Below are positions 1-39,817 of a stretch of DNA of 39,817 bases, in pieces (positions within the stretch are counted from its first letter, which is position 1; each line of letters opens with the position of its first letter). The notes under the pieces are model-generated. The model did not search any database, was not told the DNA's origin, and saw nothing but the letters and a program-made list of their open reading frames with translations. A program made the position numbers and the translations under genes. Source of the DNA: Escherichia phage TM1; sequence record MT808983.1, one strand, 5' to 3'.

Positions 1-179
1 TCACAGTTCAAGAACCTCAAGTCTCCCCATAGGCCCTCTTTTAGTCCAGACCAAAGGCCCTACCCCAGTCTATCATAAGGTGGGACCGATGGTCAAGACT
101 TCAGGTCAACGATAGGTTGAGGCTATGGCTGGAGGTCGGGACGATAGGTAGGGACTATGGGTCTGCCTCTAAGTCCCTA
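1..179. repeat. Left direct terminal repeat (DTR), identical to 39639-39817
   Basis: First 179 nt (tcacagttcaagaacctcaag...ctaagtcccta) recur at the extreme 3' end of the window; T7-like phages have terminally redundant linear genomes. Confidence 0.85.
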
Positions 180-215
180 TCTGTATAGTGTTATAGTATA
201 ACATTACGTCCTACA

Positions 216-299
216 CCTACAGTCTCACTAACCTACAGTCTCACTAACCTACAGTAACAACCATAAGACACTCACATCCTACAGTCATAGACCTACAGT
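216..299. repeat. Array of 5 copies of the octamer CCTACAGT just inside the left DTR
   Basis: CCTACAGT at 216-223, 232-239, 248-255, 278-285, 292-299; a matching array lies just inside the right DTR. T7 carries short-repeat arrays in and beside its terminal repeats. Confidence 0.7.
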
Positions 300-410
300 T
301 AATAGACACAAAGCTATAGACTTAAGGTCAAAGAAATGTTAGTCAAAGACTATATCCTCTTACACCATGAGGCCGACGATAGCTTAATCAATATTATTTC
401 AAATTACCTA

Positions 411-440
411 TTGACTATAGGTCTAGACTATGGCTTAATA
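411..440 (+). promoter_or_regulatory. Candidate host sigma70 early promoter (TTGACT, 17-18 nt spacer, TTAATA)
   Basis: TTGACT at 411-416 followed by an AT-rich -10-like hexamer; located in the non-coding early leader where T7 has promoters A1-A3. Judged by eye only. Confidence 0.3.
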
Positions 441-551
441 GCTTCCGTCAACACGACACGGCAACAACCGGATAGTGAAGACGCCGGGTCATCCCGGTTA
501 AGTAGACAGCCTGATAAGTCATACGAACAACAGGCAGATGACAGAAAGTAG

Positions 552-581
552 TTGACAAGATGTACCGACTTAAAGTAGTAT
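552..581 (+). promoter_or_regulatory. Candidate host sigma70 early promoter (TTGACA, 18 nt spacer, TAGTAT)
   Basis: Perfect -35 TTGACA at 552-557 and a -10-like TAGTAT at 576-581; the downstream context (cttaaagt) resembles T7 A-promoter regions. Confidence 0.35.
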
Positions 582-775
582 GTACCACATCAACACGAAA
601 CAACGGTGAGTCCCAACACTGAAACGGGATAGCACGGCGACGACAGCCAACGCAAATGCTCTTTAACAATCTGGATAAACTCTTAATGTGCGCCGATAGC
701 GACTAACTACAGGGTCTTTGAGTCTACATCTGAGGTCCCTGACTGATAGTCACTAACAACCTAAGAGGAATCATT

Positions 776-1057
776 ATGAGACTGAACAAAACTACGGCAG
801 AAGCCTTCCGCAAGGAGCTAGACTCAAGATTATTGCGTGGAGTGGAAGAAGAAGCAAAGCGCTATAAAGAGAATGGTCTAACGTTCAAACGATTTATGTG
901 GGATTGCTATCACGGGGTGGGTCATAAAAGGTCTCAGGAGATAATCACCAGCAACAATGCGGAAGTGCAAGTGATAGGAGGATATATGGCTAACGTGAAG
1001 GATTCTCACATAGAGACCATGCTTAAGAATGCACTTAAAGATGTAGCCTACGAGTGA
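776..1057 (+). CDS. Early protein of unknown function (93 aa), first early gene
   Basis: ATG at 776 preceded by AAGAGGAA; sits at the start of the early region upstream of the Ocr-like gene; no recognised motif. Confidence 0.6.
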   Translation: MRLNKTTAEAFRKELDSRLLRGVEEEAKRYKENGLTFKRFMWDCYHGVGHKRSQEIITSNNAEVQVIGGYMANVKDSHIETMLKNALKDVAYE

Positions 1058-1123
1058 TTAACTACAGGTCGTTAGCTTATAGCGGCCTGACTGATAGTCA
1101 CTAACAACTGAGAGGATATAACT

Positions 1124-1459
1124 ATGGAACGTAACGCTAACGCATACTATGACCTGCTGGCTGCAACTGTGAAAGCATTCAACGAGCGCATCCAGTACGA
1201 CCAACTGACTCAAGATGATGACTACTACGATGCACTGCATGAGGTTGTCGATGGAATGGTTCCGCACTATTACCACGAGATTTTCACGGTGATGGCCGCT
1301 GATGGTATAGACCACGAGTTCGAAGACTCTGGGCTGATGCCTGAGACCAAGGACGTAACGCGTATATTACAAGCTCGCATCTATGAGGCGCTTTACAACG
1401 ATGTGTCTAATAGCTCAGATGTGGTCTGGTTTGAGCCTACTGAGGAGGACTGCGAGTGA
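1124..1459 (+). CDS. ocr: Ocr-like anti-restriction DNA mimic (T7 gp0.3 homolog, 111 aa)
   Basis: Acidic protein containing [43 protein letters not shown], which closely matches the recalled core of T7 Ocr ([43 protein letters not shown]); SD GAGAGGA before the ATG. Confidence 0.85.
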   Translation: [111 protein letters not shown]

Positions 1460-1620
1460 TGGTAACTTATGGTCTCTGCCAGCACCACGTCACCAACGCC
1501 CGGCTTATGGTCAAGACCGGGCAGTTAAACCACGATGCGACTATGCGTTACCTGAAAGCGGTCTATGAGGGCCGCAAGCGAATACACGACAGCTTACACG
1601 CTGAGGACAAACCACAATGA
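1459..1620 (+). CDS. Small early ORF (53 aa), unknown function
   Basis: ATG overlaps the Ocr stop (TGATG); ends 1618-1620 overlapping the next start. Below the 60-aa cut-off of the supplied ORF track; supported only by tight gene packing. Confidence 0.35.
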   Translation: MVTYGLCQHHVTNARLMVKTGQLNHDATMRYLKAVYEGRKRIHDSLHAEDKPQ

Positions 1621-1808
1621 TAACTGAAGGTTCAATCATAGAATACAGATGTGACCACGGGTATATCCTGAAGGGTAAAGTAACGCAGGTATACACGTCT
1701 GTAACTGGTAAGCGATGCGTTGAGTTAACTAGCGGTGTGCGCTTAGGTCTGCATGAGTGTAGGCTGTTAAACGAGACGCAAGCGCCTACACGACAGCTTA
1801 CACACTGA
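1617..1808 (+). CDS. Small early protein (63 aa), unknown function
   Basis: ATG at 1617 preceded by the repeated leader ctgaggacaaaccacaATG; lies in the T7 gene 0.4-0.7 position. Confidence 0.5.
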   Translation: MITEGSIIEYRCDHGYILKGKVTQVYTSVTGKRCVELTSGVRLGLHECRLLNETQAPTRQLTH

Positions 1809-1820
1809 GGACAAGTAAAC

Positions 1821-1946
1821 ATGTACCAGATAACTTATAGCAGTGAACAGGCGTTCTACGATGGATGCTACGAGATGATGAAGCGCGGGGCTTGCTACGT
1901 GGCTAACCACCATAGCTTGACCATAACGCTGACAGGTGGATACTGA
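1821..1946 (+). CDS. Small early ORF (41 aa, MYQITYSSEQAFYDGCYEMMKRGACYVANHH...), unknown function
   Basis: ATG at 1821 preceded by a second copy of the repeated leader (ctgaggacaagtaaacATG); stop TGA at 1944-1946. Confidence 0.35.
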   Translation: MYQITYSSEQAFYDGCYEMMKRGACYVANHHSLTITLTGGY

Positions 1947-2103
1947 GTGATAAACGAGAGGTCATCTTTCTGATAGGTGGCCTCAAAGATTATCACTTAC
2001 ATTGATAGGGGTTAACTATGAGTATTGGACATTGGGTATGCCTAGCGCCAGTTATCTTGATGATAGGTTATGGGATATACGATTGTATTAAACGGAAATC
2101 ACT

Positions 2104-2301
2104 ATGAGTAGCGCACTATTGACAGCCATAGGCTATGGACTTATCGCCTACGTGCTGATGAGAGACATCAACAAGGCACGTAAAGTCTACAAATTCAACT
2201 ATGTACGTCTGGGTCGCTGGACTGTACGTCAACCTAACGGACGATTCATGCGTAACTTAGCGAACGTCTGGGATATAGCAACTCTTGGGAGCAAACTGTA
2301 A
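2104..2301 (+). CDS. Small early protein (65 aa) with hydrophobic N-terminus, unknown function
   Basis: ORF with N-terminal LLTAIGYGLIAYVLM hydrophobic stretch; weak RBS; stop overlaps the next start (TAATG). Confidence 0.45.
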   Translation: MSSALLTAIGYGLIAYVLMRDINKARKVYKFNYVRLGRWTVRQPNGRFMRNLANVWDIATLGSKL

Positions 2302-2561
2302 TGAAAACCGTATACACTCACAAATCATCAAGCCGTAGCCGCATGGAGCAAGCCCAGCGTGATATGTTCTTACATCGTCGAATGATGGCAGAGGGGCATG
2401 AGTCTGAGCTGATGTACCTGCTGTATGGTGGACGACCAATCACCGACGATGGTAAACTTCTGGTCTCAGGCTGGAAGGCGATATACCAACGGTCAACCAT
2501 CAAGCACACGACTCACGGTGACTTCAGCCATCTTCACGCTAACCAACTGATATGCAAGTAA
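2301..2561 (+). CDS. Early protein (86 aa), unknown function
   Basis: ATG overlaps the preceding stop; last early ORF before the RNAP gene. No kinase motifs, so it is not a T7 gp0.7 homolog. Confidence 0.5.
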   Translation: MKTVYTHKSSSRSRMEQAQRDMFLHRRMMAEGHESELMYLLYGGRPITDDGKLLVSGWKAIYQRSTIKHTTHGDFSHLHANQLICK

Positions 2562-2566
2562 TTCTG

Positions 2567-2590
2567 ACTTAACTATCACTATAGGACTCA
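2567..2590 (+). promoter_or_regulatory. Phage-RNAP promoter (ttaACTATCACTATAGGact) immediately upstream of the RNAP gene
   Basis: Matches the 11-member promoter family of this genome (core ACTATCACTATAGG); predicted +1 G at 2584. Confidence 0.7.
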
Positions 2591-2658
2591 AGGTCTAAGA
2601 CTCCAAGTGAAAGACCAAAGAGACTTTAAGTGAAAGACTAATAACAAGGACTTTAAGT

Positions 2659-5340
2659 ATGAGCGTCATCTCTATTGACAAACACGACTTCTCTGATGTG
2701 TCGAACGCCATTGAGCCGTTTAACCTGCTGGCTGACCACTACGGGCAAGACCTTGCAGTCAAGCAGCTTCAGCTTGAGCATGAGGCATACACTGAAGGCG
2801 AGCGACGTTTCATCAAGAACCTTGAGCGCCAGACCGAGCGCGGTGAGATGGCAGACAATCAGGTCGCCAAGCCTTTGATGCAGACTCTGGTCCCTAAGAT
2901 TGCGCAAGCCGTCAAGGAGTGGCATGAAGGCCCAGACGGGAAGCTGTCAACCTCTCGTCCTAGCGTAGCGTTCACCATGTTGAGCACTGAAGATAAGGCC
3001 GTCAAGGACCGCTCTCTGCGCATCTCCTGTGAGTCTGCTGCGGTTATCATACTGAAGGTCATCCTCTCCAAGCTGGTAAAGCCTGAAGGGATACCGATTA
3101 CACCTATGGCCTCCGCGATAGGTCGCACACTTGAAGATGAGATCCGCTTCGGTCGAATCAGAGACAAGGAGCAGGAGCACTTCAAGAAGGCGATAGCTGA
3201 TAACCTGAACAAGCGAGCTGGGGCATCCTATAAGAAAGCCTACATGCAAGCGGTTGAGACCTCCATGCTGGAGCAAGGTCAACTGGAAGATGCGTGGGGA
3301 ACTTGGAGTCCGACAGAGGCGGTACACGTTGGCATCAAGATGCTTGAGATTGTCATACAGTCTACACAACTGGTCGATATTAAGCGTTATGGTGCTGGCA
3401 ATGCAGCGGCTGATGTTGAGATGGTCCACCTGTCAGACTTCTGGGTCAAGAAGATGGCACAACGTGGGTTCAGCCTTGCGGGTATCGCACCAGTCTATCA
3501 GCCTTGCGTAGTTCCACCTAAGCCGTGGACGGGTGTCGTAGGCGGTGGGTACTGGGCCAAAGGTCGCAGACCGTTACCATTGATTCGCTTAGGGTCTAAG
3601 TCTGCGGTAGCACGTTACGAAGACGTGTACATGCCGGAAGTCTATGACGCTGTGAACATCATCCAGAATACACCTTGGAAAGTTAACAAGAAGGTTCTGG
3701 ACGTGGTGAACATGGTCGAGAAGCTGAACAACACGCCTATTGACGACATCCCTCAGATGGAGCCACTAAAGCCTGAGGACTATGCGGGTGAGACCGATGA
3801 AGAACTGAAGGCATGGAAGAAAGCTGCTGCTGGTATCTATCGACGCGAGAAGGCCAGACAGTCGCGCAGATTGTCACTGAGCTTTATCGTCAACCAAGCG
3901 AACAAGTTCTCTCAGTTCAAGGCCATCTGGTTTCCATACAACATGGATTGGCGAGGTCGTGTCTACGCTGTCCCGATGTTCAACCCTCAGGGTAACGACA
4001 TGCAGAAGGGTCTCCTGACTCTGGCAGTCGGCAAGCCTATTGGTGCTGACGGTTTCAAATGGCTGAAGGTACACGGTGCAAACTGCGCGGGTGTTGATAA
4101 AGTCACCTTCGAGGAGCGAATCAAGTGGGTGGAAGACAATCACGACAACATTATGGCTGCTGCTAAGGCACCGATGGATAGTATTGAGTGGTGGGGCAAG
4201 TTAGACTCTCCGTTCTGCTTCCTTGCGTTCTGCTTCGAGTATGCTGGCGTAATGCACCACGGCCTGTCTTACTCCTGCTCGCTGCCGATAGCGTTCGATG
4301 GGTCCTGCTCTGGTATTCAGCACTTCAGCGCGATGCTTCGTGACCACATCGGTGGACATGCAGTAAACCTAACTCCATCCGGCAAGGTTCAAGACATCTA
4401 CCGCATCGTGTCTGACCGCATCGCGGAGGAACTCAAAGTCCTGCTTGTTAACGGTACGGATAACGAGATGGTGACTCACGAGGACAAGAAAACTGGTGAG
4501 ATTACCGAACGTCTCAAGCTGGGGACACGAGAGCTGGCCCGTCAGTGGCTGACCTACGGTATGTCACGTAAGGTCACTAAGCGTTCGGTCATGACTCTGG
4601 CCTACGGGTCGAAAGAGTATGGCTTCGCAGACCAAGTATACGAGGACATCGTGATGCCAGCGATTGACTCAGGGTCTGGCGCTATGTTCACTGAACCAAG
4701 CCAAGCGTCTCGCTTCATGGCTAAGATGATTTGGGAAGCTGTGAGTGTGACCGTGGTTGCTGCGGTTGACGCGATGAAGTGGCTTCAAGGTGCTGCCAAG
4801 CTGCTGGCTGCTGAGGTGAAGGACAAGAAGACTGGAGAAATCCTGAAGCCTTGCCTTCCGGTACACTGGGTAACACCTGATGGTTTCCCGGTCTGGCAGG
4901 AATACCGCAAGAAGGATACAACCCGTCTGAACCTGATGTTCTTAGGGTCATTCAACCTTCAGCCTACAGTCAACAAAGGCACGAAGAAAGAGCTGGACAA
5001 GCACAAGCAGGAGTCAGGCATTAGCCCGAACTTCGTCCACTCACAAGATGGCAGCCACCTGCGGAAGACTGTAGTCCACACTCATCGCAAGTATGGCGTG
5101 ATGTCATTCGCAGTGATTCACGATAGCTTCGGGACCATCCCGGCTGACGCTGAGTATCTGTTCCGTGGTGTCCGTGAGACGATGGTAGAGACATACCGCG
5201 ACAACGATGTGCTGCTTGACTTCTACGAGCAGTTTGAATACCAGCTTCACGAGAGCCAGCGCGACAAGCTGCCTGAGCTTCCGAAGAAAGGTAAACTAAA
5301 TATCGAAGACATCTTGTCTTCAGACTTTGCATTCGCTTAA
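2659..5340 (+). CDS. gp1: Single-subunit DNA-directed RNA polymerase (T7 gp1 homolog, 893 aa)
   Basis: Collinear similarity to recalled T7 RNAP along the whole length (e.g. PYNMDWRGRVYAVPMFNPQGNDM, DGSCSGIQHFSAMLRD, HDSFGTIPADA, C-terminal SDFAFA). Confidence 0.97.
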   Translation: MSVISIDKHDFSDVSNAIEPFNLLADHYGQDLAVKQLQLEHEAYTEGERRFIKNLERQTERGEMADNQVAKPLMQTLVPKIAQAVKEWHEGPDGKLSTSRPSVAFTMLSTEDKAVKDRSLRISCESAAVIILKVILSKLVKPEGIPITPMASAIGRTLEDEIRFGRIRDKEQEHFKKAIADNLNKRAGASYKKAYMQAVETSMLEQGQLEDAWGTWSPTEAVHVGIKMLEIVIQSTQLVDIKRYGAGNAAADVEMVHLSDFWVKKMAQRGFSLAGIAPVYQPCVVPPKPWTGVVGGGYWAKGRRPLPLIRLGSKSAVARYEDVYMPEVYDAVNIIQNTPWKVNKKVLDVVNMVEKLNNTPIDDIPQMEPLKPEDYAGETDEELKAWKKAAAGIYRREKARQSRRLSLSFIVNQANKFSQFKAIWFPYNMDWRGRVYAVPMFNPQGNDMQKGLLTLAVGKPIGADGFKWLKVHGANCAGVDKVTFEERIKWVEDNHDNIMAAAKAPMDSIEWWGKLDSPFCFLAFCFEYAGVMHHGLSYSCSLPIAFDGSCSGIQHFSAMLRDHIGGHAVNLTPSGKVQDIYRIVSDRIAEELKVLLVNGTDNEMVTHEDKKTGEITERLKLGTRELARQWLTYGMSRKVTKRSVMTLAYGSKEYGFADQVYEDIVMPAIDSGSGAMFTEPSQASRFMAKMIWEAVSVTVVAAVDAMKWLQGAAKLLAAEVKDKKTGEILKPCLPVHWVTPDGFPVWQEYRKKDTTRLNLMFLGSFNLQPTVNKGTKKELDKHKQESGISPNFVHSQDGSHLRKTVVHTHRKYGVMSFAVIHDSFGTIPADAEYLFRGVRETMVETYRDNDVLLDFYEQFEYQLHESQRDKLPELPKKGKLNIEDILSSDFAFA

Positions 5341-5354
5341 CAGGAGAGAGAGTT

Positions 5355-5555
5355 ATGGAATTTGCACACAAGCAGACTGGCGTTAAGGGTGGTACTCAAA
5401 TCGTGACCGTAACAGAACACAACGGCAAGGGTCTGGTGAAGACCACTGTCATCCCTACCGAGATGTCAAAGCAGCTTAACGTCCAGTTCAAGTGGCTGGT
5501 TAAGCAGGTGGAGCAGACGCACGAGCAAGTCCTTAAAGAGGCGGCAACCAAATGA
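5355..5555 (+). CDS. Hypothetical protein (66 aa) between RNAP and gene 1.1
   Basis: ATG with SD AGGAGAGAG; T7 has no gene at this position. Confidence 0.5.
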   Translation: MEFAHKQTGVKGGTQIVTVTEHNGKGLVKTTVIPTEMSKQLNVQFKWLVKQVEQTHEQVLKEAATK

Positions 5556-5629
5556 CATACCTACAGTTACTGGCCCTGTGGCTGGGAGCACTAGCAGTAT
5601 TCACTCTAATCCAACGCAGAAGAGGTTAA
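5552..5629 (+). CDS. Possible small hydrophobic peptide (25 aa, MTYLQLLALWLGALAVFTLIQRRRG)
   Basis: ATG overlaps the upstream stop (ATGA); predicted single transmembrane helix followed by a basic tail; very short, so tentative. Confidence 0.2.
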   Translation: MTYLQLLALWLGALAVFTLIQRRRG

Positions 5630-5633
5630 CCAT

Positions 5634-6113
5634 ATGTTCGGTAAGTCAAAACTTAAGGCACAAATCAAAGAGTTGAGCATGAAGGTGGCATACTTGGAGC
5701 GAGTCGTAGAGGTCCGGGACAAGGACAACGAGCGGCTGAAGGTTAAACTTGCTGAATCAGAGCGTAAGCGCCTAACGCCACCAGCTGCTGTAACTGTCAA
5801 GCGTATGGTAGGCATCAAGTTCAAGGCTCTATTCAACGGTATGTACCAACCGGCTGAGTTCAAGACTGGGCCGGGTAACTGTGGGAAGAACGTTAAGCAC
5901 TTCACCATCTCGAAGACTGAACGCACACTGACCATCCACCAGCACCACATAGACGGGTCTCAGAAAGACTTTGAGTACCGACTGAGCGACATCGACGGTA
6001 GAATCCAGTATGACTATGAGCTGGTTAAGGTATACGGTGAGGAGGCTGAACAGGAACGTATAGTCCAAGCCTTCCGCAACAGACACGATTCGTACCCTAA
6101 ACTATCACTATAG
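5634..6113 (+). CDS. Hypothetical protein (159 aa) with coiled-coil-like N-terminus, accessory gene
   Basis: ATG with SD GAAGAGG; its stop codon TAG lies inside the following phage promoter; no recognised motif. Confidence 0.6.
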   Translation: MFGKSKLKAQIKELSMKVAYLERVVEVRDKDNERLKVKLAESERKRLTPPAAVTVKRMVGIKFKALFNGMYQPAEFKTGPGNCGKNVKHFTISKTERTLTIHQHHIDGSQKDFEYRLSDIDGRIQYDYELVKVYGEEAEQERIVQAFRNRHDSYPKLSL

Positions 6114-6119
6114 GATTAG
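6096..6119 (+). promoter_or_regulatory. Phage-RNAP promoter (taaACTATCACTATAGGatt), phi1.1 position
   Basis: Family consensus; predicted +1 G at 6113; overlaps the 3' end of the upstream ORF. Confidence 0.8.
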
Positions 6120-6160
6120 ACTCAAGGTCATGACTCAAAGTCGTGGCCTTCATGATTAAC
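6118..6160 (+). ncRNA. Conserved leader hairpin, candidate RNase III processing site (R1.1 position)
   Basis: agactcaaggtcatgactcaaagtcgtggccttcatgattaa; one of three copies of a conserved AGACTCAAGGTCAT...GGCCTTTATGATTA element. Confidence 0.5.
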
Positions 6161-6195
6161 CCTAACCTAACGTAAACTACTGGAGATTTAACAAC

Positions 6196-6375
6196 ATGTA
6201 TCAGAACACTATCAACTTCGAGCGCATCCGTGAACGTCAACAGACTGAAGATTATATTCCGAAGGGCCGCAAGCTGAACAAGACCAAGCGTGGCGGTGGT
6301 GTCAAGGGTGCTTTCCGTAACGCTGAAGGCAAAGACTCTCTGGTCAACCAAGAGAAATACTTCGTAGGAGCATAA
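6196..6375 (+). CDS. gp1.1: gp1.1-like small basic protein (59 aa)
   Basis: Contains GRKLNKTKRGGG, matching the GRKLNKTKR motif recalled from T7 gp1.1; position after RNAP and the phi1.1 promoter. Confidence 0.7.
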   Translation: MYQNTINFERIRERQQTEDYIPKGRKLNKTKRGGGVKGAFRNAEGKDSLVNQEKYFVGA

Positions 6376-6378
6376 GCC

Positions 6379-6630
6379 ATGAGTAAACGTTGGTTATTCG
6401 ACGCATCACCGAGCCAGTGGTCATCGTTAGGCCGGACCCACAGAGAGATGAGCGAGGCAGGACTTGAGGTCAGAATGGATGACCTGCCGTGCTCCGGAAA
6501 GACTCTGGTCCAAATCATTGAAGCAGACGATGGGAGGATTCTGGTCACGCGCAAATTTAACGAACACGAAATCTTTAGCTGTGAGCAATGGTGCTTGCAG
6601 CAACTGAATGCTTACAGGAGCTGGAAATAA
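6379..6630 (+). CDS. gp1.2: gp1.2-like protein (83 aa; the T7 homolog is a dGTPase inhibitor)
   Basis: Position between gp1.1 and ligase, similar length and C-terminal WK as recalled for T7 gp1.2; internal similarity is weak. Confidence 0.55.
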   Translation: MSKRWLFDASPSQWSSLGRTHREMSEAGLEVRMDDLPCSGKTLVQIIEADDGRILVTRKFNEHEIFSCEQWCLQQLNAYRSWK

Positions 6631-7670
6631 TGACAACTATCAAGACTAACCCTCACCGCGCTGTAGACTACTCTGAGTCTGGCGTTAAGAAAGCGCTCGA
6701 AGCTGCCGGGTCACTGGAAGCTGAAGTGAAGTATGACGGTGTGCGGTTGAACCTTCCGGTGCTGCGAGAGGGTGAGACTTATTGGTTAAGCCGTGAGTCG
6801 AAACCTCTGCCTGCCTTGGAGTGGATGAACTCTGAGCTAGGTAATGCGTGGACCCAAGCTGACTGGCGATGGTTCCTGCGGCAAGCTGGATACGAAGGTG
6901 TGGGCCTGATGATCGATGGCGAGGTCATGATCAAAGGTGTGGACTTCAACACCTCCTCAGGTCTCATCCGAACGAAGTGGCTCAAGCCTAACAATGAGGA
7001 GGTCGCTGAATGCTATCCGGGCCGTGGCAAGAAGGTCCCGTTCTTGGTCTCCCGGTCACGACTTCAGGTTGTGGTATATGGCGTTGTCGATATGACAACC
7101 ATAGCAGACCCGAAAGCCGAAGGTCCTATCCATAGCGTCACACGCCTGAAGGCCGAAGCCATCGTCCCTCTCCTCCAGAAATACTTCCCGGAAATCGACT
7201 GGGTATTATCTGAGAGTCATACAGTGTATGACCTTGAGTCGCTCAACTCCCTGTACGAAGAGAAGCGTCTGGAAGGACACGAGGGTCTGGTAGTCAAGGA
7301 CCCACTTGGTAAATACAAGCGTGGCAAGAAGTCAGGCATGTGGAAAATGAAGCCTGAGGAGACAATCGACGGGACAGTGTGTGGCCTCGTGTGGGGGACT
7401 CCGGGTAAGGCTAACGAAGGTAAGGTGATTGGCTTTGAGGTGCTGCTTGAGGATGGCATGGTGGTTAATGCTTGTGGTCTGACTGAAGAACAGAAGGATG
7501 AGTTTACGGAAGCCTGTAACACTGATACATATATTCTCGGTGGAATCAATCCATACGAAGGCTGGCAGTGTGAAGTCCTTTTCATGGAGCGGTTCCCTGA
7601 TGGCTCACTCCGTCACCCTAGCTTCAAGTGCTGGCGAGGGACGGAAGACAACCCGACCGTTAAGAGTTAA
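6630..7670 (+). CDS. gp1.3: ATP-dependent DNA ligase (T7 gp1.3 homolog)
   Basis: MTTIKTNPHRAV...EVKYDGVR (KxDG adenylation motif) ...GHEGLVVKDP...KRGKKSGMWKMKPE...SLRHPSF, collinear with T7 ligase; start taken at ATG 6630 (T7-like MxxIKTNP) rather than the upstream alternative start in the ORF track. Confidence 0.92.
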   Translation: MTTIKTNPHRAVDYSESGVKKALEAAGSLEAEVKYDGVRLNLPVLREGETYWLSRESKPLPALEWMNSELGNAWTQADWRWFLRQAGYEGVGLMIDGEVMIKGVDFNTSSGLIRTKWLKPNNEEVAECYPGRGKKVPFLVSRSRLQVVVYGVVDMTTIADPKAEGPIHSVTRLKAEAIVPLLQKYFPEIDWVLSESHTVYDLESLNSLYEEKRLEGHEGLVVKDPLGKYKRGKKSGMWKMKPEETIDGTVCGLVWGTPGKANEGKVIGFEVLLEDGMVVNACGLTEEQKDEFTEACNTDTYILGGINPYEGWQCEVLFMERFPDGSLRHPSFKCWRGTEDNPTVKS

Positions 7671-7678
7671 CTAAACGT

Positions 7679-7720
7679 CAACCCAGTGGTCTTCGGACTG
7701 CTGGGTTTCTTTGCTTTATG
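7679..7720 (+). terminator. Rho-independent terminator, analog of T7 early terminator TE
   Basis: GC-rich hairpin (aacccagtggtcttcggactgctgggtt) followed by a T-rich tract tctttgcttt directly after ligase, where T7 has TE. Confidence 0.7.
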
Positions 7721-7753
7721 CTAGCAAGCTATCGTCTGGTCAACCAGCCTGAC

Positions 7754-7777
7754 CCTAAGCTATCACTATAGGACAAC
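7754..7777 (+). promoter_or_regulatory. Phage-RNAP promoter (taagCTATCACTATAGGaca)
   Basis: Family consensus with one upstream substitution; predicted +1 G at 7771. Confidence 0.7.
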
Positions 7778-7803
7778 CATAACTTCGACCTAAGGAGGCC
7801 GAC

Positions 7804-8064
7804 ATGTTTAAGAACTTAATGTTCAACCGTTATACCAGTACCTTCCACCTGTCCCACAACCCGTTCGCTTGCATTAAGCGCAACGAGAAGCTGGGATACT
7901 TCGGGAAGGCCGTTAAGCTGTCACCTACAGTCTTCGCTCTGATTACTCCGGGCAAAGCTGAAGAGGCTCGCCAGAAGCGTGAGACCAACGTACCTGTGGT
8001 CTACACTAAGTGGCCCCGCGTTCGTCTGTTCGTTGAGCTCGTGAAGGAGGTGGTAAATGGTTAA
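7804..8064 (+). CDS. Class II hypothetical protein (86 aa)
   Basis: Strong SD (AAGGAGG) before ATG 7804; first gene after the TE-like terminator. Confidence 0.6.
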   Translation: MFKNLMFNRYTSTFHLSHNPFACIKRNEKLGYFGKAVKLSPTVFALITPGKAEEARQKRETNVPVVYTKWPRVRLFVELVKEVVNG

Positions 8065-13446: not shown

Positions 13447-13450
13447 GTCT

Positions 13451-13498
13451 AGACTCAAGGTCATTCACATCGATTGGCCTTTATGATTAGACTAAACG
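13451..13498 (+). ncRNA. Conserved leader hairpin, candidate RNase III site (R4.7 position, upstream of DNA polymerase)
   Basis: agactcaaggtcattcacatcgattggcctttatgattagact; second copy of the conserved element. Confidence 0.5.
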
Positions 13499-18362: not shown

Positions 18363-18767
18363 ATGCTACCATATCTCAACTCACGCGAAGGTCGCCACAT
18401 GTGCGCTTGTCGCCTCTGGGAAGACGGGCAGTCTAACTTCAAGTCATTCGAGGACTTCAAGGCTCATACTTACCGTATGGCTGACGAGTTCGACGGTGAA
18501 GAATACACAATCTACGATGTCTCAGGTCAACCAGTAGCGTATCTCTACATGCTGGCTACCGCATCTTGGCACCGACCGACTCCCGGTCTTGACCTTTCAA
18601 TCGTCGCTGTTCGTCGTGACTCGCAGTCCTCCCGCAAGGTTCTTGAGACTGTCAGGCACATCGTAAACGAAGAGTGCAAGCGTTGGGGTCTTGACTGGTA
18701 TTCTCGTGTCAAGCATGTTTCTGGGTCGGTAGACATCGTAACAACTAAGGAGATTAATCGTGGGTAA
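18363..18767 (+). CDS. gp7-like protein (134 aa)
   Basis: Position between the 6.7 and 7.3 homologs and length similar to T7 gp7 (about 133 aa); sequence similarity not verified from memory. Confidence 0.5.
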   Translation: MLPYLNSREGRHMCACRLWEDGQSNFKSFEDFKAHTYRMADEFDGEEYTIYDVSGQPVAYLYMLATASWHRPTPGLDLSIVAVRRDSQSSRKVLETVRHIVNEECKRWGLDWYSRVKHVSGSVDIVTTKEINRG

Positions 18768-19008
18768 ATCAATCAGTAAGGCTTTCAAGAAAGTGGTGAA
18801 AAGTACGCTAGGGACCGTTGGTCTTGGCTCTGATGACGCGCCTAAGGTTGTTGAGGCTCAGACCCCAGCAGCACCAGTGGAAGTACCGAACGACAAAGTG
18901 GAGGATGTGGATACTGAAACAACAGCATCTGACGAGAAGAAAGTGAAGCGTTCCGGTAAGCGTAGCCTTCAGGTCTCTCGCACCTCTGGTGGCGGTATTT
19001 CTATTTAA
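18760..19008 (+). CDS. gp7.3: gp7.3-like tail/virion protein (82 aa)
   Basis: MGKSISKAFKKVVK...KRSGKRSLQVSRTSGGGISI parallels T7 gp7.3 (MGKKVKKAVKKV...SLSVARSSGGGINI); GTG start after AAGGAG. Confidence 0.8.
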   Translation: MGKSISKAFKKVVKSTLGTVGLGSDDAPKVVEAQTPAAPVEVPNDKVEDVDTETTASDEKKVKRSGKRSLQVSRTSGGGISI

Positions 19009-36290: not shown

Positions 36291-36345
36291 TGTTAGACTC
36301 AAGGTCATTACTATATGTAGTGGCCTTTATGGTTAACACTAAGGA
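36291..36345 (+). ncRNA. Conserved leader hairpin, candidate RNase III site (R18.5 position)
   Basis: tgttagactcaaggtcattactatatgtagtggcctttatggttaacac; third copy of the conserved element. Confidence 0.5.
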
Positions 36346-39638: not shown

Positions 39639-39817
39639 TCACAGTTCAAGAACCTCAAGTCTCCCCATAGGCCCTCTTTTAGTCCAGACCAAAGGCCCTA
39701 CCCCAGTCTATCATAAGGTGGGACCGATGGTCAAGACTTCAGGTCAACGATAGGTTGAGGCTATGGCTGGAGGTCGGGACGATAGGTAGGGACTATGGGT
39801 CTGCCTCTAAGTCCCTA
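39639..39817. repeat. Right direct terminal repeat, identical to 1-179
   Basis: Sequence tcacagttcaag...ctaagtcccta matches the first 179 nt of the window. Confidence 0.85.

Follow-up and report, generated by a model that had tools for sequence, protein, structure and literature searches.

Probable RNase III processing hairpins before the first early genes of Escherichia phage TM1, and their position at gene cassette boundaries in related T7-group phages

The maturation of phage T7 mRNA by ribonuclease III (RNase III) is established (PMC13454534). One of the processing sites, R0.3, is located between promoter A3 and gene 0.3 in T3 and T7 (PMC3276506), and a site upstream of T7 gene 6.5 has been confirmed (PMC2696425). 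Cleavage of the R1.1 RNA takes place at a single bond and gives products of 47 and 13 nucleotides (nt) (PMC4858673). It has been shown that internal loops limit RNase III to one phosphodiester, leaving a protective 3' hairpin (PMC1540722), and that the retained hairpin shields the upstream RNA from 3'-5' exonucleases (PMC1540722, PMC6993053). In T4-type phages, a stem-loop motif is found together with an early promoter in the promoter-early stem-loop (PeSL) cassettes (PMC2839356, PMC4122927). Here we describe two related leader modules in the genome of Escherichia phage TM1 (sequence record MT808983.1; the whole stretch of 39,817 nt is referred to as the window). The first module precedes a gene of unknown function, here called Y, and the second precedes ocr, the equivalent of gene 0.3. 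Both are very probably sites for RNase III processing such as T7-group phages carry, placed on a polycistronic early mRNA that the host polymerase makes from promoters at the left end of the genome.

A first-pass annotation of the window had reported a 23-bp sequence that occurs twice in front of early genes. An exact search confirmed this: CCTGACTGATAGTCACTAACAAC has exactly two copies, at 738–760 and 1086–1108, both on the plus strand, with no further match at up to three mismatches in the window and no match in 100 shuffles. The start codons at 776 and 1124 follow 15 nt past the end of each copy, and each is preceded by a purine-rich Shine-Dalgarno (SD)-like motif (AAGAGGA at 763–769 for Y and GAGAGGA at 1110–1116 for ocr), also in agreement with the annotation. 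A second shared block, the 10-mer TAACTACAGG, lies 5' of each 23-mer copy, at 704–713 and 1059–1068. Taken alone this 10-mer is not significant, 41 of 100 shuffles yielding at least three matches at up to one mismatch. The distance of about 35 nt that had been given between the blocks applies to copy 1 (34 nt, start to start) but not to copy 2 (27 nt).

The first-pass annotation missed that both shared blocks belong to a single RNA hairpin, of which they form the 5' and 3' strands. The hairpin is composed of a lower stem, an asymmetric internal loop and an upper stem. Each TAACTACAGG block pairs with the CCUG...UAGUC(AC) portion of its 23-mer. The stretch between the blocks varies between the copies but pairs in both, and forms the apical stem-loop of the hairpin. 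The internal loop has 1 nt, a C-G pair and 2 nt on its 5' side, and 3 nt, the G of that pair and 1 nt on its 3' side. Both copies share a fold of two helices, with about 20 bp in all, and their loop geometry is that of T7 R0.3.

Copy 1 (type A, R0.3-like) spans 697–755 on the plus strand and folds at -19.5 kcal/mol with a z score of -2.4. Its outer pairs (697–699/753–755) are followed by the lower stem (701–705/747–751), the C707-G745 pair and an upper stem (710–718/732–741) that contains either a U715.U736 mismatch or a bulged U736. The 5' block at 704–713 provides the end of the lower stem, the 5' side of the internal loop and the first upper-stem pairs, while the 23-mer at 738–760 provides the end of the upper stem (CCUG), the 3' side of the internal loop (ACU-G-A), UAGUC as a strand of the lower stem and the beginning of the leader, ACUAACAAC. 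On the plus strand, copy 2 (type B, R0.5-like) spans 1053–1102 and folds at -23.0 kcal/mol with a z score of -4.4, none of 200 shuffles folding as well. It consists of a lower stem (1053–1060/1095–1102), the C1062-G1093 pair, an upper stem (1065–1074/1080–1089) and a 5-nt loop (1075–1079), and the TGA stop codon of Y (1055–1057) sits within its lower stem. Folding of both leaders, which had been proposed as a check, therefore gave a hairpin in each case. The two copies differ from each other in their upper stems and in the 5' strands of their lower stems.

Copies 1 and 2 align base for base with T7 R0.3 and R0.5; the aligned strands are GCGGAUAACUCAAGGG...CCCUUUAUGAUAUUCACUAAUAAC in R0.3, GCGACUAACUACAGGG...CCCUGACUGAUAGUCACUAACAAC in copy 1 and GAGUGAUAGACUCAAGGUCG... 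in R0.5. Like R0.3 of T7 and T3, copy 1 follows the early host promoters and stands immediately in front of the first early gene or ocr. It has the identical internal-loop geometry, and shares GCG..UAACU, AGGG where the upper stem begins, and the tail ...CACUAA(C/U)AAC. It differs from T7 R0.3 in the sequences of the loop (ACUAC/UGACUGA here, ACUCA/UUUAUGA in T7), in the first upper-stem pair (C-G instead of A-U) and in an apical part that is about 10 nt longer. Copy 2 matches R0.5 throughout its lower stem and where its upper stem begins (GAGUGAUUAACUACAGGUCG... compared with GAGUGAUAGACUCAAGGUCG...), and has the same closing pairs as T7 R1, ACAGGUC...GGCCUGAAU. In contrast to R0.5, it is located in front of ocr and not behind it, and the 3' strand of its lower stem, UAGUCAC, distinguishes it from both R0.5 and R1 and is specific to Kayfunavirus.

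The homology was also assessed with a covariance model trained on six T7 sites only (R0.3, R0.5, R1, R1.1, R4.7 and R18.5), with which the window was searched with the filters off. The T7 sites R6.5 and R13, which we take to lie at 18852 and 27281, show no R-site-type hairpin at these positions and were excluded from the model. Six matches in the window were significant, all of them on the plus strand, and the next best score was 10.9 bits. Copy 1 was matched at 701–757 (24.8 bits, E 1.6e-4) and copy 2 at 1056–1105 (37.7 bits, E 1.7e-8). The other four are a third early hairpin at 1949–2000 (type C, ...GAGAGGUCAUC...GGUGGCCUCAAAGAUUAUCAC; 34.6 bits, -25.7 kcal/mol, z -4.1), an R1.1-like hairpin at 6116–6166, directly after a phage promoter at 6099–6115 (39.7 bits), an R4.7-like hairpin at 13448–13497 (38.7 bits) and an R18.5-like hairpin at 36292–36343 (48.8 bits). 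When T7 itself was searched as a control, the model recovered its six training sites at 49–56 bits, and in addition the untrained R6.5 region (18507–18569; 24 bits) and R1.3 region (16.7 bits). No plus-strand match with E below 1 was found in T7 outside the known R sites, and on the reverse strand only weak echoes of known sites appeared. No Rfam family matched positions 1–8000 of the window at E up to 1, and the T7 R sites are apparently without representation in Rfam. Judged by this homology, copies 1 and 2 in all likelihood belong to a well-known class, that of the T7-group RNase III sites, and are orthologous or paralogous to R0.3 and R0.5. In this genome both hairpins are unannotated.

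Conservation of the pairing was examined in 39 model matches from relatives, which comprise 33 distinct sequences. In an alignment that was fitted to the model, a slight lean towards structure against which the margin is large, 97.8% of the pair cells form standard pairs, compared with 19–47% when the partners are slid. Seven of the 15 pairs have changed on both sides, and the 76 compensatory cells were reached by none of 500 shuffles. The inverted repeat TGACT-gat-AGTCA, which the first-pass annotation had placed at the core of the module, is present at 740–752 as described. As a conserved local hairpin it was rejected: on the same alignment it pairs in 63.6% of the cells, and at three of its five positions over half of the distinct sequences break the pair. 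This palindrome is a by-product of the lower-stem strand.

A DNA-level operator, also named as an option in the first-pass annotation, in which a protein binds this palindrome before both genes, would be in line with the occurrence of all 13 bp in both copies and with their invariance in most of the type A and type B copies of the relatives. We nevertheless regard it as very improbable, since all significant model matches are on the transcribed strand, the stems make use of G-U pairs, the pairing of the palindrome falls far behind that of the long hairpin in the family, and no promoter overlaps the modules for an operator to control. Neither a sigma-70-like site nor a phage promoter was found in 690–775 or 1045–1123.

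A promoter of the sigma-70 type is located upstream of both hairpins, at 552–581 on the plus strand (TTGACA, an 18-nt spacer and TAGTAT; 10 of 12 consensus matches), and feeds the transcript that contains them. The first phage promoter on the plus strand is found only at 2570, with none earlier, which places both modules in the early transcript of the host polymerase. This sense-strand position, together with the homology to R0.3 and R0.5 and the covariation, supports the RNase III-type processing site that the first-pass annotation had named as one option. Stable, GC-containing hairpins between genes could also bring to mind an intrinsic terminator or attenuator. Such a role is most unlikely here, as no U-tract follows either hairpin, a terminator scan of 1–2700 on the plus strand gave nothing, and the design of two helices with an internal loop is typical of R sites and not of terminators.

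In the case of RNase III from E. coli, the proximal box has been described as G-C at position 1, A-U or U-A at position 2, A-U at position 3 and a pair other than G-C or C-G at position 4; past it lie a 2-bp middle box and then the distal box UA/UG (PMC1540722). The mapping of these positions onto the hairpins is a step of the present analysis. It gives, for both copies, G-C at position 1, A-U at position 2 (where G-C is strongly inhibitory) and a non-Watson-Crick A.A at position 4, and the middle box of copy 2 is U.G/C-G, as in R1.1. Several observations speak against processing at these sites. Position 3 of the proximal box is C-G in both copies instead of the optimal A-U, and in place of the optimal distal box UA/UG copy 2 has G-C/U.G and copy 1 has C-G/U.G. 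The upper-stem mismatch or bulge of copy 1 is not present in relatives, and the scores of this copy reach only 24.8 bits and z -2.4. Moreover, no open reading frame (ORF) between ocr and the polymerase gene at 2659 is long enough for a kinase of the T7 gp0.7 type, the protein kinase that stimulates RNase III in T7. The cut sites predicted for this phage derive from homology. The deviations in the boxes are also seen in bona fide T7 sites, exemplified by C-G at position 3 of the proximal box in R1 and G-C at the first distal-box position in R0.5, both of which are listed as RNase III sites. On this mapping the boxes are compatible with cleavage but do not by themselves decide for it. Compared with K1F and Peacock, copy 1 carries two substitutions (734 and 736) in the 3' strand of the upper stem. 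These yield the U715.U736 mismatch or the bulged U736, and the first site may therefore be processed less efficiently here.

The T7 GenBank records NC_001604 and V01146, in the versions used here, list no RNase III features. Dunn and Studier are reported to have placed the T7 cut, in 1983, in the 3' side of the internal loop, CCUUUAU^GAU. These positions agree with the 47- and 13-nt products of R1.1. By alignment with this sequence, cleavage on the plus strand is predicted between U744 and G745 in copy 1 (744..745) and between U1092 and G1093 in copy 2 (1092..1093). Host RNase III would bind the helix of about 20 bp, and the internal loop would confine the cut to the 3' strand at these two bonds. 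The upstream RNA would retain a 3' hairpin and be protected from 3' exonucleases, whereas the downstream message would begin with GAUAGUCACUAAC... and have an unstructured leader with an SD motif. The predicted leaders are 31 nt long both for Y (745–775, plus strand) and for ocr (1093–1123, plus strand). As a result, the early transcript would be split into separate messages for Y (776–1057) and for ocr with three small ORFs (1124–1946).

The module that is conserved in the family stops at ...CACTAAC, and the last three bases of the 23-mer (AAC) belong to two different leaders. The identity covers 23 and not 20 bases since both leaders, that of Y (AACCUAAGAGG) and the short one of ocr (AACUGAGAGG), start with AAC, a match that is a coincidence. 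The ocr leader (1103–1123) is 10–14 nt shorter than in most relatives, including K1F, Peacock and Vec13, and the same short form is found in ST1749 and T147P5. The longer ocr leaders carry (T)TAACTTTGAGAGGATATA, in the form of TTAACTTTG in K1F and CAACTTTG in Peacock and Vec13. They resemble the T7 gene 10 leader, TTAACTTTAAGAAGGAGATATA, and a piece resembling a translational enhancer may consequently have been lost here.

The identity of 23 out of 23 bases and the equal distance to both start codons could be taken as signs of a recent tandem duplication of the leader in this genome, without a function of its own. The comparative data contradict this speculation and leave it with hardly any probability. 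Upper stems and lower-stem 5' strands are of two different types (type A, GCGACUAACUACAGGG(U/C)C... with a long apical part; type B, GAGUGAUUAACUACAGGUCGUUAG...), each of which is conserved in many genomes, and the downstream genes Y and ocr are unrelated. The type-B hairpin alone is found in 114 phage records, and in the 60 that were listed, as in the Kayfunavirus records among them, mostly 'none' is given as the annotation beneath the hairpin.

A search for the module in related genomes, also suggested by the first-pass annotation, showed that the hairpin recurs. A scan of IMG/VR with an exact 15-mer gave 79 loci, about 20 of which, from T7-like contigs of about 40 kb, were used; the remaining IMG/VR loci come mostly from contigs of other sizes and may be chance matches. 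All loci fetched taken together, 49 such hairpins were found in 27 loci, with one to four per locus, and as many of the 27 loci are fragments these copy numbers are lower bounds. The exact 20-mer CCTGACTGATAGTCACTAAC is present in 39 of the 49 hairpins. Directly 3' of the hairpins we found at least 12 unrelated ORF families, in what is a small sample. In the Kayfunavirus genomes that were examined, a type-A upper stem is found at the site that comes first after the promoters; the only exception as to position is PM129, with an extra copy of this upper stem further downstream. Inspection of PM129 (MZ234044) at 1281–2834 revealed four hairpins with type-A or type-B upper stems, of which the fourth, with a type-A upper stem, is located downstream of ocr and before a gene of 75 amino acids (aa; MNTITGAI...).

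The arrangement of genes between these hairpins varies among the relatives. With X denoting K1F gp0.2 and Y the window gene at 776–1057, the order is A-X-B-ocr in K1F and ST1749 and A-X-B-Y-B-ocr in Peacock, T147P5 and PM129. A Vec13-like contig (L050) has A-Y-B-X-B-ocr, in which X and Y are swapped, the window phage has A-Y-B-ocr, and several others have A-ocr. In an alignment of five genomes, each insertion or deletion (indel) spans a whole cassette and ends within hairpins. Furthermore, hybrid hairpins with a type-B lower and a type-A upper stem are found in ST1749 and PM129. The cassette-wise acquisition of early genes proposed in the first-pass annotation has thus left its footprint in the relatives, where whole-gene indels and one swap of order end exactly in the hairpins.

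A homologue of Y with 57% aa identity is encoded by the Yersinia phage phiYe-F10 (Teetrevirus, KT008108; 1506–1913). It is located behind ocr and is flanked on one side by an R0.5-like site of the T7 type and on the other by a type-B-like hairpin, and a near-T7 copy of R0.3 stands before the ocr of this phage. The type-B-like hairpin is 87.7% identical to that of the window and has a compensatory change from G-C to A-U in the lower stem. The presence of both the homologue and the hairpin is evidence for a transfer of the cassette between genera, in which Y travels together with the hairpin that follows it. What moves seems to be a unit of leader, ORF and 3' hairpin. An unusual hairpin was observed in front of ocr in Escherichia virus ECG4 (MN218775; 1376–1438), with an 18-nt tandem duplication (CTACAGGTCGTTAGACTG twice) and without part of the 3' strand of the upper stem. 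It could represent an aberrant site, a recombination scar or an assembly error.

As the comparative data suggest, the 40–60 nt of near-identical hairpin sequence between the cassettes may act as portable homology. Through recombination between co-infecting phages, units that consist of a leader, an ORF and a 3' hairpin could then be inserted, deleted or put into another order, and for single-gene cassettes such as X and Y the exchange unit would correspond to one processed mRNA. Whether the RNase III hairpins of K1F-like and related T7-group phages double as recombination linkers in this way is, in our estimate, evenly balanced. Selection that keeps only intact expression units could give the same pattern of indels, which tells against a role in recombination.

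The position of the hairpins at the ends of the indels and of the swap would also be expected if they were kept only as recombination or cassette-boundary sequence, or as a passive 3' stabiliser, and were not cleaved by RNase III in this phage. The C-G pair at position 3 of the proximal box, the non-optimal distal boxes and the mismatch in copy 1 are in favour of this explanation. It is nonetheless improbable, given the loop geometry shared with T7, the strong scores of a model trained on T7 only, the compensatory changes that keep the RNA pairing, G-U pairs included, and the presence of the same box deviations in T7 R1 and R0.5. Processing by RNase III therefore remains the preferred explanation for both hairpins.

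No description of cassette exchange mediated by R sites in T7-like phages was found in the literature searched, and the systematic coincidence of processing sites with exchange points may be the only new part of these observations. The PeSL cassettes of T4-type phages offer a parallel. There too a conserved intergenic stem-loop is repeated between small, variable early ORFs, and the end points of insertions, deletions and replacements among close relatives lie in the motif. However, a PeSL couples an early promoter to a stem-loop that resembles a terminator, whereas the motif described here contains no promoter and probably serves RNase III processing at the RNA level. There is no homology between the two.

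If the hairpins are processed as proposed, the likely mRNA boundaries and 5' leaders are fixed for the first early genes, ocr included. An ORF found after ...CCTGACTGATAGTCACTAAC would be marked as an early gene of the host polymerase, and as a candidate host-takeover or anti-defence gene. For phage engineering, the hairpins would represent natural, tolerated insertion points. A connection of processing sites with cassette exchange could account for the high variability of the left ends of these genomes. If the hairpins do act as recombination linkers, early genes for host takeover and anti-defence would have their turnover shaped by a signal for RNA processing, as is the case with PeSL motifs in T4-type phages.

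The window is a K1F-like genome of the T7 group (Kayfunavirus), and its closest records are about 88–91% identical over 400–1500. Exact direct terminal repeats of 179 bp, at 1–179 and 39639–39817, show that it is a complete linear genome of the T7 type. Gene Y (776–1057, plus strand) encodes 93 aa and belongs to phrog_9817, and ocr (1124–1459, plus strand) encodes the DNA-mimic anti-restriction protein (PF08684, 1.7e-30; phrog_2568). A single-subunit RNA polymerase of 893 aa is encoded at 2659–5340. Matches to the phage-promoter consensus number 11, all on the plus strand, ten of them clear and one weak (2013–2029, three mismatches).

Directly 5' of the polymerase gene, 2570–2586 is a perfect match to this consensus, TAACTATCACTATAGGA, and is followed by ACUCAAGGUCU...AGACC, which resembles the start of an R site. 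No R1-type site was found before the polymerase gene: 2586–2658 folds weakly (z -0.7) and has no match to the T7-derived model. Such a site seems to be degenerate or absent here. From the third early hairpin to the polymerase gene (2018–2561) there are only small ORFs, of 29, 65 and 86 aa. The two larger ones have PHROG matches of unknown function, and the smallest has none.

Further upstream, an ORF of 71 aa at 336–551 is the equivalent of gp0.1 as annotated in K1F. It overlaps the early-promoter region, with TTGACT at about 411 and TTGACA at 552, and is a doubtful gene, since the promoter at 552–581 implies a transcription start downstream of it. Just to the right of the terminal repeat, at 215–255, a perfect tandem repeat of 16 nt, ACCTACAGTCTCACTA, is present 2.6 times, with extra copies of CCTACAGT at 278 and 292. 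The strings CTACAG and TCACTAAC are common to the repeats at 215–307 and to the two halves of the RNase III hairpins, perhaps by coincidence, perhaps through a relation to the arrays of short repeats that T7 genomes have at their left end.

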